Virus record (IMG/VR): IMGVR_UViG_2563366830_000009
Length of the DNA: 6,457 bases
Source: a virus
Lineage: Duplodnaviria > Heunggongvirae > Uroviricota > Caudoviricetes
Direction: 5' to 3' (one strand)
In this document: piece by piece, positions 1 to 6,457 of the stretch
Layout of the letters: every line of letters begins with the position of its first letter
Position numbering within the stretch: the stretch's first letter is position 1
Translations under genes and position numbers: made by a program
The notes under the pieces: generated by a model
Seen by the model: the letters and a program-made list of their open reading frames with translations, nothing else
Told to the model about the DNA's origin: nothing
The model's database searches: none

Positions 1-224
1 CCGCCGCCCGGGCGGGAATCCGCAGAACGCCCACCGCAGCGTGAGCCGTCAGCAGCAGTGTCGCTGTCGTGCTGACAACGACCGGCAAAGGCCTGAGTTG
101 ACGCTACCAGAGACAACAAAACGAACAGTGCAGCAAATGCTTTTTTCATTGTGACATTTCCATCTATAAGCCACCTCAATGTGGCGTCAATGAGTGTAGC
201 ACTGACTTTTGTTTCGTCCATAAA
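1..224. repeat. Direct repeat copy 1 (about 224 bp, 2 mismatches to copy 2 at 1176-1399); may extend left of the window
   Basis: Read directly: positions 1-224 align with 1176-1399 at offset 1175, differing only at 185 (c vs t) and 215 (t vs c). Contains the perfect palindrome CCCGCCCGGGCGGG (3-16). Confidence 0.9.
163..190 (-). promoter_or_regulatory. Sigma70-like promoter inside repeat copy 1 (-35 TTGACG, -10 TATAGA, 16-nt spacer)
   Basis: Minus-strand reading shows a -35 hexamer at 190-185 and -10 at 168-163. The single repeat mismatch at 185 falls in the -35 (TTGACG here, consensus TTGACA in copy 2). Confidence 0.4.
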
Positions 225-230
225 AAACTA

Positions 231-1098: not shown

Positions 1099-1113
1099 TT
1101 ACCTTTAAGGTAA
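1099..1113. promoter_or_regulatory. Operator-like perfect palindrome TTACCTTTAAGGTAA (site 1), overlapping a -10-like hexamer of a minus-strand promoter
   Basis: Minus strand reads TTGCAG(1141-1136)-17 nt-TACTAT(1118-1113) running into the palindrome. The identical 16-mer TTACCTTTAAGGTAAT recurs at 3921-3936. Confidence 0.55.
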
Positions 1114-2340: not shown

Positions 2341-3060
2341 TCAGAAGAACCCTGCCTTGTCGTTGATGTACTCCGCGTGGGTCTGGATATCACGCAGGCA
2401 TTTGCTCACACCGACGATGTAGCAGAACATGGTGGTCAGCTCCGCCGCCGCGCCCGATACGTCATGCCCGTCTTCCTGTAACTGGTTCAGCAAATTCATC
2501 AGCAGTGAGTTCTCCGTCAGGCCGAGAACACCAGACGGCGAGTGAATCAGGCTGCGGTAGCCGGGCTTCAGTGGGGCGCTGTATTCTTTTTTGTCTTCCA
2601 GCTTGATCGCCTCCATAATGGCGGGCATGAATTTTTCAATTACCTGAGTGGCCTTTGATAAATCAGCTCCACCTGAGAGACGAACATCTCCACTGACATT
2701 TGCGGGTTTTCTGTCGAAGTAGCAATCTTCCAGTTTTTCGAAGACCTCCCACGCTTTTTCAGTCTCAAGAATTTTCGCATGTCGTGCTGCACCGCGAGCG
2801 GTCCATAAGAAAAGATGACTTACTTTTGGTGCAATATTAAGCAAACCTCTTTGAGAGGACTCGTTCTTAAATGCTCGTAATTCTTCGCCTATCAGCTTGA
2901 AACAATGTTTTCCCTCAATGAATCGATCTGCATTTCGTTGATAGTTTTGACGAATCAGTTTGGGTTCTGTGTCATACAAATCAGCAAGCATTTCTGTAGT
3001 CATTACAGGGATGTTGCAATGAGTTGTTATCGGCAACTTATCAATAGCTATATTACGCAT
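2341..3060 (-). CDS. ORF6N-domain (KilA-N superfamily) protein, often annotated as phage antirepressor-like; N-terminal ORF6N domain plus an uncharacterised C-terminal domain of about 130 aa
   Basis: N-terminal region (VMTTEMLADLYDTEPKLIRQNYQRNADRFIEGKHCFKLIGEE...LWTARGAARHAKILETEKA) fits the ORF6N consensus as I recall it (VMLD-DLA-LY...RN-RFP-F-L-EE). The track start is 3075, but GGAGG with 8-nt spacing favours ATG at 3060-3058. That start overlaps the upstream gene stop (3053-3055) in the sequence ATGCGTAA. Confidence 0.6.
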   Translation of the reverse strand: MRNIAIDKLPITTHCNIPVMTTEMLADLYDTEPKLIRQNYQRNADRFIEGKHCFKLIGEELRAFKNESSQRGLLNIAPKVSHLFLWTARGAARHAKILETEKAWEVFEKLEDCYFDRKPANVSGDVRLSGGADLSKATQVIEKFMPAIMEAIKLEDKKEYSAPLKPGYRSLIHSPSGVLGLTENSLLMNLLNQLQEDGHDVSGAAAELTTMFCYIVGVSKCLRDIQTHAEYINDKAGFF

Positions 3061-3559
3061 TTTCATTGCCTCCATCTTTCACGACGAAATAGCAATTATC
3101 TTTATAATCTAACTGGATGAACTTTATGTTTTCAGGGAGTTTTACAGAAAGAGTTTTTGCACAAGCAAAACCAAAATCTGCGCCAGAAGCATCCATATAC
3201 CTTAATAATTGTTTTAATGCTGAAGGAGAAAAAGTATCTACCTTCACCTCAACAGGGTAACCATCTTTTGTTTTTAGGTCTGGTTGACCTGGTCCACCAA
3301 GTATTTCAGCGTTAAGGTATTTTGCTATTTCTGGATAAGCGTTGTATTCAGAGCGTAGTTTTGCCTTGTTATCGACTGCTAGTTGCATAAGATGATCAAA
3401 CAAATTGGTATCTAAATCTGCCCCTTCATCCCACATTCTATTTCTACAGCTAATCAATTCACTGACCAGTGGTGCACTTTCTTGCCTTAGCATAAGAAGG
3501 AGTGGAGAATTAGAAATTAACCAATACAGATCGTCGTTTGAGATTTTTTGGCCTGGCAT
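3053..3559 (-). CDS. Hypothetical protein (168 aa), AT-rich, translationally coupled to the ORF6N gene
   Basis: RBS GAGGT about 7 nt before ATG at 3559. Overlaps the downstream gene by 8 nt. No recognisable domain by eye. Confidence 0.5.
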   Translation of the reverse strand: MPGQKISNDDLYWLISNSPLLLMLRQESAPLVSELISCRNRMWDEGADLDTNLFDHLMQLAVDNKAKLRSEYNAYPEIAKYLNAEILGGPGQPDLKTKDGYPVEVKVDTFSPSALKQLLRYMDASGADFGFACAKTLSVKLPENIKFIQLDYKDNCYFVVKDGGNENA

Positions 3560-3835
3560 AGCGATACCTCTACTAGTAAGTTACCTACCACCGCAACGCC
3601 AATTGCTGGTGGTGAACTGGACAAGGTTGGCGTACCGGCCTAGTAGGTACCGGCGCACCTTTCGGTGCCCCTGCCCAGCCCACCATAATTCGGATATGAC
3701 TGTGCTATACGCATAAAAAAACCACGTCTGGCGTGGTATGCGCCTACTAGTAATCCGGGACGCCAATCCCGGCACTGGATTTTGCCAGTGCCCGATTACT
3801 ATGGCACAAGAGGAGTGCGATGTAAATTTACCGAA
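3560..3835 (-). ncRNA. Candidate structured RNA: either an sRNA of about 120 nt (roughly 3835 to 3714) or a long attenuator-type 5' leader of the 168-aa/ORF6N operon
   Basis: Multiple nested stem-loops are visible: an outer stem AGTAATC/GATTACT (3748-3754 with 3794-3800) enclosing hairpins CCGGGA-CGCCAA-TCCCGG and CACTGG-ATTTTG-CCAGTG; GCACC-TTTC-GGTGC; ACCACC...GGTGGT. A promoter with overlapping operator sits upstream and the terminator is at 3714-3737. No ATG-initiated ORF in this minus-strand stretch. Confidence 0.3.
3714..3737 (-). terminator. Intrinsic terminator-like hairpin on the minus strand (ACCACG-CCAGA-CGTGGT followed by U6-7) inside the long region upstream of the 168-aa gene
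   Basis: Plus strand shows aaaaaaACCACGtctggCGTGGT; on the minus strand the 6-bp stem is followed by a T-run. It lies about 155 nt upstream of the 168-aa start codon. Confidence 0.5.
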
Positions 3836-3871
3836 AAGGTAATGATAAACGCTAAGAAATATTAAAATCAA
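3828..3871 (-). promoter_or_regulatory. Minus-strand promoter (-35 TTGATT 3871-3866, 18-nt spacer, -10 TATCAT 3847-3842) overlapping operator-like site 3, TTACCGAAAAGGTAA (3828-3842)
   Basis: Minus strand reads TTGATTttaatatttcttagcgttTATCATTACCTTTTCGGTAA. The arrangement of a -10 hexamer running into the TTACC half-site is the same as at site 1 (TACTATTACC). Confidence 0.4.
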
Positions 3872-3920: not shown

Positions 3921-3935
3921 TTACCTTTAAGGTAA
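3921..3935. promoter_or_regulatory. Operator-like site 4, TTACCTTTAAGGTAA, identical to site 1 and 21 nt upstream of the 175-aa gene start
   Basis: Perfect palindrome; the 16-mer TTACCTTTAAGGTAAT matches 1099-1114. It is followed by tgtGAGGAaaagcaATG (RBS and start at 3956). Confidence 0.5.
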
Positions 3936-4504: not shown

Positions 4505-6361
4505 TTAACGCATCACCGGATCCACCTGGTTTATTAGTGGCGCAATCCAGAACAGGTTATTGCCGGGGATCGTAGTTCGTACATTATGTACAATACGATC
4601 ACCGACATCACCATTCAACACACCAGAGGTCACATCAATGATGCTGTCCGCAAGACTGAATGACGGGCCGAACAAAGAACTCACAAAGCCACGGCTGGCA
4701 TAGCGTGACTGTGTGCCGGTGCCAAATAAAGCCCCCAGCCCAACAGCACCACCAGTAGCCTTTTCAGCCATGTTGTTATATTCCATCAATGGCCCAAGAA
4801 TACCGGATCTATCTATACCCTCAAGCACCAGCTTCTCTGGTGACCAGTCAACATCCTTCCCTTTCGATGCTTCTTTAAGCGCATAGACCAGTGAGCCAAG
4901 AGCAATCTGAAATGCAGTGCCATAATAAAACTGCGCAGTTCCTTCCTGTAACCCACCAAGTAGCGCACGGTTGTATGAAGCCGTTGTGAATGATTTAAAC
5001 TGAAATATCGTTCGCCCCCATGACGTACTCGCCCATAAAGGTGTGTCACCAATACCGGGGGTGATGATAGTGTTATTAACGTCTTTCAGAACCGCTGACT
5101 GGAATACTCCGGCAACGTACTGATCGTCCCATTTATCAAAGTTACCAATGTGCCATCCATCAATTACCTCACCATGTTTCTCGAACTCACTGCGAATACG
5201 CGCAGCCATATTGTCGTTGATACCGAGTTTTGCCAGGCGGCGTGCAGGAAATGCACCGGACAAAATACCGTCTGAAATAACCATTCCGTTCATGGATTTG
5301 TTTATGTCATTAAAGCGATCCATGAGTGTCAGCTTGCCGAAGGCATCAGTAATTCGCTCCATTCCGGCTTCGACTGCTGTTGTCCTGGAAGAGCTGTCAA
5401 CAAGATCACCAATTGCACGAGAGCGTGAATGCAGTACAGTTTCCAGTCCGATACCCATCTTCAACATCTCTTCTTTGCTGGCCTTAAATGCCGGTGATTG
5501 GGATATCTGAGAAGCATAGCCTTTCATGGTGTTACGGAAACCATTAACCATAACCCCTCTGGCCAGATCTGGAATAGCTGATACTGTCATTCCACCGAGT
5601 TTGGTCGTGAAGTTCACATCCCGCAGAAAAGCGCCAGCACGAACAAAAAACGAAGACGGATCATCAGGCATCCCATATGTACCAACAAGACGATCGCGTA
5701 ATGCTGTTATGTCTCTGAGATCATTTGCTCTTGATTTTGAAAGTCTGGACTGTTCTTTCCGTAATTCCTTTTCGTACTTTCGCATTAATGAATCGAGTTT
5801 ACCCTGAGGAACAACTTCACCATTGCTCTCATAACGTGCTTTCAGATTTGCCACACTTTCGTCATATTTCGCCTTTATTTTTTCAGGCACTTCCCGTAAC
5901 AGACTGTCATATTCGTCCTCAATTAATTGCAGACGCTCAGTCATAGTTCGTTTGCCAAATGTTCTCGTCAACTCAATTTCTGCTGCCGCTTCACGGATAT
6001 GACGTTGCAGCACGTAATTCACATCACTTTCAAGATAATCCCTGATAAGACTATCAGGAACATTTAATGTTCTTTCTTTCGTACTACCTGCGGCTTTTAC
6101 AGAAAATACGCTGACAAAATCCTGTGGAACCTTAGCACCAGTAATTTTATTAATTACGATATCTGCTGCAATTTCAGCATCCTCAGGAACCAGTGTTTTA
6201 TTTCCTCTCGACCACCAGTCAACCAAAATACGTCGAAATTTATCGCGTTCACTGATTATTTTTCCAACTTTATATATGCGTGGGAAATAGCTTGCCTGGC
6301 CTAATGCTTTCAGTTCTTCATCTGGCGGCAATAAACCAAGCTTTTGCATTTCAACTTTCAC
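4505..6361 (-). CDS. Large hypothetical protein (618 aa as tracked), charged/coiled-coil-like middle and Gly-rich hydrophobic C-terminal segment; possibly a phage virion or injection/tape-measure-like protein; 5' end abuts an IS element
   Basis: Long uninterrupted ORF. The tracked start at 6361 is GTG; the first ATG is at 6349-6347, with weak SD for both. The reading frame stays open upstream into the IS end at 6378 and to the window edge. No Walker A or HExxH motif seen. The family guess is weak. Confidence 0.6.
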   Translation of the reverse strand: MKVEMQKLGLLPPDEELKALGQASYFPRIYKVGKIISERDKFRRILVDWWSRGNKTLVPEDAEIAADIVINKITGAKVPQDFVSVFSVKAAGSTKERTLNVPDSLIRDYLESDVNYVLQRHIREAAAEIELTRTFGKRTMTERLQLIEDEYDSLLREVPEKIKAKYDESVANLKARYESNGEVVPQGKLDSLMRKYEKELRKEQSRLSKSRANDLRDITALRDRLVGTYGMPDDPSSFFVRAGAFLRDVNFTTKLGGMTVSAIPDLARGVMVNGFRNTMKGYASQISQSPAFKASKEEMLKMGIGLETVLHSRSRAIGDLVDSSSRTTAVEAGMERITDAFGKLTLMDRFNDINKSMNGMVISDGILSGAFPARRLAKLGINDNMAARIRSEFEKHGEVIDGWHIGNFDKWDDQYVAGVFQSAVLKDVNNTIITPGIGDTPLWASTSWGRTIFQFKSFTTASYNRALLGGLQEGTAQFYYGTAFQIALGSLVYALKEASKGKDVDWSPEKLVLEGIDRSGILGPLMEYNNMAEKATGGAVGLGALFGTGTQSRYASRGFVSSLFGPSFSLADSIIDVTSGVLNGDVGDRIVHNVRTTIPGNNLFWIAPLINQVDPVMR

Positions 6362-6377
6362 CCGATTTAATACAGTT

Positions 6378-6457
6378 TGAACCGCCCCGGGAATCCTGGA
6401 GACTAAACTTCCTGAGAAAGAGGTAAACAGGATGACTAAAAATACTCGTTTTTCCCC
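6378..6457 (+). mobile_element. Left end of an IS3-family insertion sequence (IS629/IS1203-like): terminal inverted repeat starting TGAACCGCCCCGGG plus the first codons of orfA (MTKNTRFS from ATG 6432)
   Basis: The sequence TGAACCGCCCCGGGAATCCTGGAGACTAAACTTCCTGAGAAAGAGGTAAACAGGATGACTAAAAATACTCG matches my memory of the IS629-type left end and OrfA N-terminus (MTKNTRFSPEVRQRA...). The element continues beyond the window. Confidence 0.65.

Follow-up and report, generated by a model that had tools for sequence, protein, structure and literature searches.

A probable P1 immI-type antirepressor operon with a nuclease-fold protein as first gene product in an epsilon15/SPC32H-like prophage of Escherichia coli

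Antirepressors govern the awakening of prophages and whether an incoming phage beats the immunity of a resident one. We analyzed a stretch of 6,457 nucleotides (nt) from the virus record IMGVR_UViG_2563366830_000009, here called the window, in which two overlapping genes encode a protein of 168 amino acids (aa) and a protein with an ORF6N domain. This gene pair is probably the protein-coding half of an antirepressor operon of the P1 immI type, carried by an epsilon15/SPC32H-like (Uetakevirus) prophage of Escherichia coli. The second gene would encode the antirepressor, and the first, which occupies the slot of icd in P1, a protein with a predicted nuclease fold. The anatomy of the locus, the complementarity and covariation of its RNA elements, the homologies and the fold come from the analysis itself, and the rest of the reading is drawn by analogy with P1 c4-icd-ant and Gifsy-1 isrK-orf45-anrP.

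Antisense RNAs upstream of the gene pair

Along the minus strand, a putative Rep operator and a promoter are followed by an isrK element (a1, b1 and a terminator), a C4 RNA, a leader holding a2 and b2, the gene of the 168-aa protein (orf168) and the gene of the ORF6N protein (ORF6N-Ant). The parts of the operon, in which SD stands for Shine-Dalgarno sequence and ORF for open reading frame, are as follows.

3828..3842, no strand assigned: perfect palindrome TTACCGAAAAGGTAA, putative Rep operator, 1 nt away from the operon promoter's -35 hexamer
3798..3826, minus strand: sigma-70-like promoter, from a consensus scan only (-35 TTTACA at 3826..3821, 17-nt spacer, TG-extended -10 CATAGT at 3803..3798)
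3715..3804, minus strand: isrK/c4-a1b1 element (Rfam, terminator scan, complementarity to C4)
3766..3760, minus strand: a1, UUGGCGU
3750..3743, minus strand: b1, CUAGUAGG
3737..3721, minus strand: isrK terminator hairpin with a U-run after it (terminator scan)
3605..3690, minus strand: C4 antisense RNA (Rfam RF01695, 76.7 bits against a gathering score of 45, full-length model)
3647..3640, minus strand: b' loop of C4, CCUACUAG
3633..3627, minus strand: a' single strand of C4, ACGCCAA
3567..3602, minus strand: leader of orf168 with the C4 targets (exact complementarity, P1 positions, covariation in 10 modules)
3602..3596, minus strand: a2, UUGGCGU
3576..3570, minus strand: b2, CUAGUAG
3559..3053, minus strand: orf168, 168-aa protein WP_001119419.1, hypothetical in RefSeq (ORF list)
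3053..3073, minus strand: putative coupling junction, with SD GGAGG (3073..3069) within orf168, ATG of the antirepressor gene (3060..3058) and TAA of orf168 (3055..3053)
3060..2341, minus strand: ORF6N-Ant antirepressor, 239 aa, WP_001244090.1 (Pfam ORF6N, phrog_1760, PDB 5D50_E)

The isrK match (3791..3715) reached 68.1 bits in Rfam against a gathering score of 50, and the c4-a1b1 match (3804..3752) reached 45.1 bits against 46.7. The predicted fold of C4 (z = -3.3 against shuffled controls) leaves both recognition elements unpaired. Each of them has exact complementarity of 7 to 8 nt at two places, a' to a1 and a2 and b' to b1 and b2, and b2 runs into the SD of orf168 (GAGG, 3570..3567), 7 nt ahead of the ATG at 3559. 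C4/isrK elements were found upstream of every close homologue of orf168 examined, as well as upstream of one homologue with 51% identity and one with 44% identity.

The pairing was compared across 10 modules and P1. The modules were those of the window, of a second locus in the same prophage, of orf168 homologues in three genera, of a viral contig, of L020 (which carries the 51%-identical homologue) and of TL-2011b, ZX5 and MLI109. Across them, a'/a2 and b'/b2 covary compensatorily. At least five b-types (CUACUAG, CCUUUGUAG, CGUUUAG, CCUUUUAG and CCACUUAG) and three a-types (ACGCCAA, AGACCAA and GUUCCAA) occur among the 10 modules, in addition to the distinct pair of P1 (UCACUAAC and CUGUCAA). 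In P1 and nine of the 10 modules, b2 keeps nearly the same distance from the first ORF's start codon, at -16 to -18; the exception is L020, where the sole b-type match found was 6 nt long and at -5. The orf168 homologues alone carry three b-types, each matched at -17. On comparative grounds, the joint changes of the a'/a2 and b'/b2 pairs argue strongly for the ribosome-binding site (RBS) of orf168 as the target of C4.

Two further observations concern these RNAs. The frameshifted, partial "Rha family phage regulatory protein" pseudogene annotated by RefSeq/PGAP at window positions 3605-3701 is really the C4 RNA. A leader segment, GGUGGU(GA) (window 3584-3591, -32 to -35 from the ATG), is invariant in all related leaders and complementary to the 3' arm of the stem that closes C4 (UCACCACC, 3613..3606). 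Through this complementarity, the segment might fold into another cis structure while the transcript is still unprocessed, or it might be tied to processing of the C4 3' end.

The overlap of the two genes

The overlap between the genes, already reported by the sequence-only reading, is real but lies on the minus strand: it is 8 nt long (ATGCGTAA, the reverse complement of 3053-3060), with the ATG 2 nt ahead of the TAA. The junction, consisting of GG(A/G)GG, 8 nt and ATG(C/A)(G/C)TAA, is kept in the homologous loci of Klebsiella, Enterobacter, Salmonella and a viral contig (5 loci), and the 8-nt overlap is also found in L020. Both orf168 and ORF6N-Ant are under purifying selection, with pairwise ratios of nonsynonymous to synonymous substitution rates (dN/dS) of 0.06 to 0.18, and synonymous sites are near saturation between divergent homologues (dS 0.8 to >2). 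As the junction has been kept despite this near saturation, the overlap is not due to chance.

The start of the antirepressor gene is better placed at 3060 than at 3075. The longest-ORF version of the gene (244 aa, minus strand) runs from the ATG at 3075 to 2341. The sequence SD GGAGG stands 8 nt ahead of the ATG at 3060, the equivalent start is chosen by gene callers in all homologues, and the PHROG family profile starts at the Met of 3060; the preference rests on these three points. The ATG at 3075 is in frame and conserved but without a spaced SD, and its conservation follows from its being embedded in invariant overlapping D/N-G-G codons of orf168. Another candidate, the ATG at 3066, is missing in three homologues. 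The earlier proposal of 3060 as the real start was thus right, although its complaint about the annotated start is moot: RefSeq already uses 3060, and 3075 is only the longest-ORF start.

The same reading had taken the overlap as a device for strict stoichiometry. The C4 and isrK RNAs directly upstream point instead to a gate on translation like that of P1 icd-ant. If the locus works as P1 icd-ant1 and Gifsy-1 orf45-anrP do, translation of the antirepressor would be coupled to that of orf168.

The ORF6N protein is an antirepressor

The antirepressor gene encodes the following domains.

3030..2770, minus strand: ORF6N domain, residues 11-97 (Pfam PF10543)
2652..2344, minus strand: after a linker, the Ant C-terminal module, from residue 137
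2589..2359, minus strand: SPC32H-Ant-like core, residues 158-234 (PDB 5D50_E)

The profile search confirmed the ORF6N domain: the PF10543 match scored 67.8 bits (cut-off 27.8; E = 1e-18) and spanned positions 3-86 of the 86 in the model. The C-terminal domain, which had been described as novel, turned out to have a structurally solved homologue: residues 158-234 aligned with residues 3-79 of the 86-aa Ant of Salmonella phage SPC32H (PDB 5D50_E; E = 5e-14, 40% identity). The whole protein matched phrog_1760, "anti-repressor," from end to end (E = 2e-97). Homology thus identifies the ORF6N protein as an antirepressor with a known C-terminal domain. In SPC32H, Ant forms a tetramer, which attaches to two Rep dimers and takes apart the tetramer of Rep (PMC9638917; PMC9986798). 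The prophage has a Rep homologue in the syntenic position, a 194-aa helix-turn-helix protein (WP_000836293.1) whose full length aligns with SPC32H Rep at 43% identity (E = 1e-53).

The prophage carries two more antirepressor genes. Just outside the window, upstream of window position 1, lies a second isrK/C4 module with a BRO-N antirepressor (L003 10993-11916; loops AGACCAA and CCUUUGUAG). The C-terminal 103 aa of ORF6N-Ant are 86% identical to the C terminus of this BRO-N protein, and the last ~80 aa are 100% identical. The two C4 modules converge on the cargo genes and are near identical except at a'/b' and the target elements; because they differ at these recognition elements, they are predicted to be orthogonal. 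The third gene (L003 10616-10910) encodes an 85-aa Ant that is 88% identical to SPC32H Ant, and ahead of it stands a LexA box, CTGTATAAACATACAG, identical to that of SPC32H ant. To judge from its sequence, it is the SOS-inducible antirepressor of the prophage.

Related phages have antirepressor genes at the same place: SPC32H has the 86-aa ant, TL-2011b has Ant and Arc, and ZX5 has an "anti-repressor." In the latter two phages, the same C4 leader goes straight into a BRO-N-Ant gene. Aligned in this way, the locus is a mosaic of a constant leader, an exchanged cassette (either a BRO-N domain or orf168 with an ORF6N domain) and a constant Ant C-module. We also observed that a single variable region of TL-2011b (L001 4970-5037) holds a P22-type immI (sar RNA, arc, ant) together with a C4 module of the P1 type and its BRO-N antirepressor.

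The 168-aa protein has a nuclease fold

The 168-aa protein had no Pfam or NCBIfam match at E ≤ 0.1 and no PADLOC match. In PHROGs it belongs to phrog_18738, listed there with function unknown. Its close homologues are few and restricted to Enterobacteriaceae, and an exhaustive HMMER profile search recovered 309 relatives at E ≤ 1e-3. An alignment of 139 sequences from this search was used for an AlphaFold2 model; the nine close homologues alone had given an unusable one (predicted local distance difference test score of 49). The model from the larger alignment is a confident globular fold with a restriction-endonuclease-like alpha/beta core and an all-helical N-terminal half, and this helical half has no detectable relatives.

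The conserved residues of the protein are encoded on the minus strand at the following positions.

3349..3347, minus strand: E71
3280..3278, minus strand: D94
3250..3248, minus strand: E104
3244..3242, minus strand: K106
3211..3209, minus strand: Q117
3199..3197, minus strand: Y121

All 139 sequences have D94, K106, Q117 and Y121, and the conservation of E71 and E104 reaches at least 90%. The D...(D/E)xK motif, the upstream helix E and the QxxxY motif aligned with those of Cas4 (4R5Q, E = 1e-6) and NucS (2VLD, E = 2e-4). By its motifs and modeled fold, the protein is a conserved member of the PD-(D/E)xK nuclease fold with an intact catalytic signature, in the NucS_C/Cas4/RecB branch. Weak NucS_C matches were found in only 15 of the 139 relatives. 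Unlike NucS/EndoMS, the protein has no NucS N-terminal DNA-binding domain, and unlike Cas4 it has no four-cysteine Fe-S cluster, with three cysteines only. It is therefore an orthologue of neither, given its all-helical N-terminal half and its three cysteines.

The protein would most likely be a Mg-dependent nuclease that acts while the phage turns to lytic growth. With low confidence, a DNA-directed role, either at the lytic switch or in inter-phage conflict, can be proposed as the most likely one. A broader proposal, worth raising but improbable, is that the 168-aa protein founds a family of antirepressor-associated nucleases replacing Icd as first cistron in C4-gated operons, whose members would be active effectors of the lysis-lysogeny switch or of inter-phage conflict, or else catalytic partners of DNA-binding domains of the KilA-N/ORF6N/P22_AR_N types.

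Recurrent link of the nuclease family to antirepressors

Members of the family were found beside antirepressors in four settings. The first is that of orf168 and ORF6N-Ant behind C4, present in four genera and in L020. In the second (L023), a 44%-identical homologue stands behind C4 and overlaps a P22_AR_N antirepressor gene by 4 nt, and in the third (L019) the same P22_AR_N pair, also with a 4-nt overlap, has no detectable C4. In the fourth (L018), a 34%-identical homologue lies next to a Rha gene and 39 nt downstream of a match to sRNA-Xcc1 (L018 4880-4962; RF02221, 70.7 bits), a small RNA that may play a C4-like role there.

These associations bear on another explanation of the pair, in which the two proteins form an obligate complex, the ORF6N domain (of the KilA-N type) targeting DNA, the 168-aa protein acting as the nuclease and the overlap fixing their ratio. 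We consider it rather unlikely, although several observations suit it. Of 5,426 complete E. coli genomes, 22 contain orf168 DNA and 22 contain DNA of the ORF6N N-domain, with one copy of each per genome and the two adjacent in every row listed. Compared with the BRO-N antirepressors, these two segments have been exchanged together as a cassette, flanked by the C4 leader and the Ant C-module, both conserved. Distant relatives of the nuclease domain are, moreover, fused in one polypeptide to an N-terminal Rha domain (complete) or Bro-N domain (truncated). On the other hand, the 44%-identical homologues precede an antirepressor of another type (P22_AR_N) behind C4, so the partner of the nuclease is not specifically ORF6N, and an overlap with reinitiation usually yields less of the downstream than of the upstream product rather than a 1:1 ratio. 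A complex of this kind would be compatible with a P1 immI-type operon and does not exclude it.

Promoter and putative Rep operators

The transcription start predicted from the promoter, at about 3791, is the first base of the isrK match, and the prophage's second C4 module has exactly this promoter sequence. The palindrome TTACC-N5-GGTAA occurs four times in perfect form in the window (1099-1113, 2241-2255, 3828-3842 and 3921-3935), against 0.14 occurrences expected. Each copy heads a transcription unit, these being the pair of a 108-aa and a YafO-like protein, the pair of a 113-aa and a DUF2335 protein, the C4 operon and a gene for a 175-aa protein. Sites of this kind are clustered in the rep-cro intergenic regions of SPC32H and of the present prophage, and they are also found upstream of SPC32H ant. 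The earlier suggestion that they are targets of the ORF6N protein is disfavored by this clustering in the rep-cro regions, and judging from their distribution alone they are probably Rep operators. If so, the operon would be under double control by repressor and C4, as in P1, and all four modules would be repressed in the lysogen. The window has no LexA box (no CTGT-N8-ACAG, even with one mismatch), which rules out LexA control of the C4 operon.

Proposed mechanism and points against it

By analogy with P1 and Gifsy-1, we propose that transcription is limited by Rep in the lysogen and that C4 covers the RBS of orf168, which would remain untranslated. The antirepressor would rely on ribosomes arriving via orf168 and hence would also not be made. 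In P1, C4 is processed from the transcript of the operon, and transcription terminates prematurely, in a Rho-dependent manner, when the first ORF is untranslated. The trigger would be a burst of transcription, either upon infection of a non-immune cell or after inactivation of Rep by the LexA-controlled minimal Ant. RNA bearing a1 and b1 would then titrate C4, orf168 would be translated, and ribosomes ending orf168 would reinitiate at the AUG at 3060. The Ant C-module would bind Rep and dismantle the Rep tetramer. Since translation of the antirepressor follows from that of orf168 in this scheme, the 168-aa nuclease-fold protein would be produced first, along with the antirepressor.

Several points weigh against an operon of the P1 type. 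The c4-a1b1 match lies 1.6 bits under the Rfam gathering score, and most transcripts may end at the isrK terminator. A local hairpin that might cover the SD of the antirepressor gene was not better than shuffled controls (z = -1.2), so coupling may not be needed, and this gene possesses a good SD of its own. The related pair in L019 is without a detectable C4. Neither protein resembles its P1 counterpart (168-aa protein against Icd, BLASTP E = 17 and no Icd-type Pfam match; antirepressor against Ant1, BLASTP E = 0.87), so that only the architecture is common.

The sequence-only reading had left the choice between a regulator and a defence pair. The regulatory role has stood, but a defence or toxin-antitoxin-like module, made of a nuclease effector and a DNA-binding regulator, is very unlikely. 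It would suit the placing of a small PD-(D/E)xK nuclease beside a protein of the DNA-binding type, in a variable moron region that has a YafO-like module at its flank, and the ORF6N domain matches a PADLOC candidate family, PDC-S05, weakly (E = 2e-8). PADLOC returned nothing for the 168-aa protein, however, and the downstream protein has a bona fide antirepressor domain, whose last ~80 aa are those of the neighboring BRO-N antirepressor. Furthermore, the putative repressor operator and the masking of the RBS by C4 would set the operon silent in the lysogen, just where a resident defence would have to be expressed, and the order of an effector first with a coupled second gene is the icd-ant order. 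Least probable of all is that orf168 is a mere leader whose translation matters and whose product does not, as proposed for Gifsy-1 orf45: it has the same position behind isrK/C4 and the same type of stop/start overlap with an antirepressor gene, and the leaders of ZX5 and TL-2011b enter the antirepressor gene directly without such an ORF, but orf168 is under strong purifying selection at saturated synonymous sites, has more than 300 detectable relatives with invariant catalytic residues and is predicted to adopt a confident globular fold, whereas orf45 lacks amino-acid conservation (PMC4825925).

Prophage context and neighboring genes

The window is identical to positions 1400184-1406640 (reverse strand) of the E. 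coli MS 196-1 chromosome (NZ_CP146681.1), where the prophage holding it is integrated adjacent to guaA. The gene order of the prophage (integrase, Bet/exonuclease, rep/cro, replication, terminase, portal, capsid, injection proteins, variable region, tailspike and lysis) is that of the epsilon15/SPC32H-like podoviruses of the genus Uetakevirus. The gene pair sits in the variable region, with the injection-protein genes on one side and the tailspike gene on the other. A 618-aa ORF (window 4505-6361; also 6370-6457) is the C-terminal part of an injection/internal virion protein gene truncated by an IS3-family insertion (a RefSeq pseudogene), and the holin gene is broken by a second IS3. Because of these two insertions, the prophage is probably defective.

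Two other overlapping gene pairs lie in the window, each behind a putative Rep operator. One (231-1056) encodes a 108-aa protein and a 170-aa YafO-like protein (Pfam E = 9.5e-4, below the cut-off), and the other (1418-2234) encodes a 113-aa protein and a DUF2335 membrane protein. A direct repeat of ~225 nt (window 1-230 and 1175-1400) doubles a small ORF (41-79 aa; hypothetical, lipoprotein-like) at the 3' end of two cargo modules. The hairpin motif GGCACATCC(A/C)TGTGCCGCCGC, at 1160-1180 and 2318-2338, marks the module borders and is a possible recombination joint.

Implications

The P1 c4 logic would be at work in prophages of epsilon15-like podoviruses in E. coli, Salmonella, Klebsiella and Enterobacter, with at least five RNA specificities that are predicted to be mutually orthogonal, and one prophage can hold two RNA-gated antirepressors and one SOS-gated antirepressor. 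A conserved and apparently catalytically intact nuclease-fold protein is placed exactly where the RNA switch acts and would be translated just before the antirepressor. If it is an active nuclease, the breakdown of immunity would be coupled to DNA cleavage, and there would be a clue to why large antirepressors bear KilA-N/BRO-N/ORF6N/P22_AR_N domains. As an effector, it might cut the DNA of the host or of a rival prophage when immunity is breached, and such cutting could trigger the SOS response and fire the LexA-controlled minimal Ant, giving a positive feedback. If the antirepressor-associated nuclease family exists, whether its members are effectors or catalytic partners, it would provide a function for the N-terminal domains of large antirepressors, which have long lacked an explanation. 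If the protein is not a nuclease, the locus remains a clean and testable example of a known regulatory design. The annotation is also improved, with the "Rha pseudogene" reassigned to an RNA and the two "hypothetical" or "ORF6N" proteins now nameable.

Comparison with known systems

The P1 icd gene encodes a cell-division inhibitor. The annotated P1 RefSeq record shows a C1 operator on the promoter, followed by a1, b1, c4, a2 (3 nt after c4) and b2 (ending 10 nt before the icd ATG), with the icd stop overlapping the ant1 start by 4 nt. The order and spacing of P1/P7 immI are the same in the prophage: b2 and a2 stand at -17 and -43 from the ATG, compared with -18 and -47 in P1, and in both a2 lies 2 to 3 nt past C4 and b2 ends 10 nt before the start of the first ORF and overlaps its SD. 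Modules also carry differing a'/b' specificities, as P1 and P7 do. The differences are that the first ORF encodes 168 aa with a predicted nuclease fold instead of the 73 aa of Icd, that the overlap is 8 nt rather than 4 nt, that an isrK-type terminator separates a1/b1 from C4, and that the host element is an integrated podovirus, whereas P1 is a plasmid prophage.

In Gifsy-1 isrK-orf45-anrP, coupling of the antirepressor to the upstream ORF has been demonstrated by mutagenesis, and orf45 has 45 codons that are conserved at the nucleotide but not at the amino-acid level (PMC4825925). The two systems have in common an isrK RNA with a leaky terminator in first position, followed by an ORF whose stop overlaps the start of the antirepressor gene. 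Unlike orf45, orf168 encodes a conserved, enzyme-like protein and lies wholly downstream of C4.

With SPC32H, the prophage shares the place of the gene between the injection-protein and tailspike genes, as well as the TTACC-N5-GGTAA sites. The Ant domain is here the C-terminal module of a 239-aa ORF6N protein that is predicted to be controlled by C4 and has no LexA box, whereas the true SPC32H-type gene, which has the identical LexA box, is the separate 85-aa one that this prophage also carries. In APSE phages, BRO-N genes have c4/isrK small RNAs beside them, and ORF6N genes have sRNA-Xcc1 upstream (PMC7313666). Common to APSE and the prophage is the placement of small antisense RNAs directly before regulator genes of the KilA-N/BRO-N/ORF6N type in temperate podoviruses, while no nuclease-like first cistron between them is described for APSE (PMC7313666).

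The regulatory design (P1 immI and Gifsy-1 isrK), the Ant domain (SPC32H) and the use of ORF6N as a standard N-terminal domain of antirepressors are thus already known. New are an uncharacterized and apparently catalytically competent PD-(D/E)xK family in the icd slot, repeatedly linked to antirepressors, and a prophage that stacks three differently gated Ant genes.

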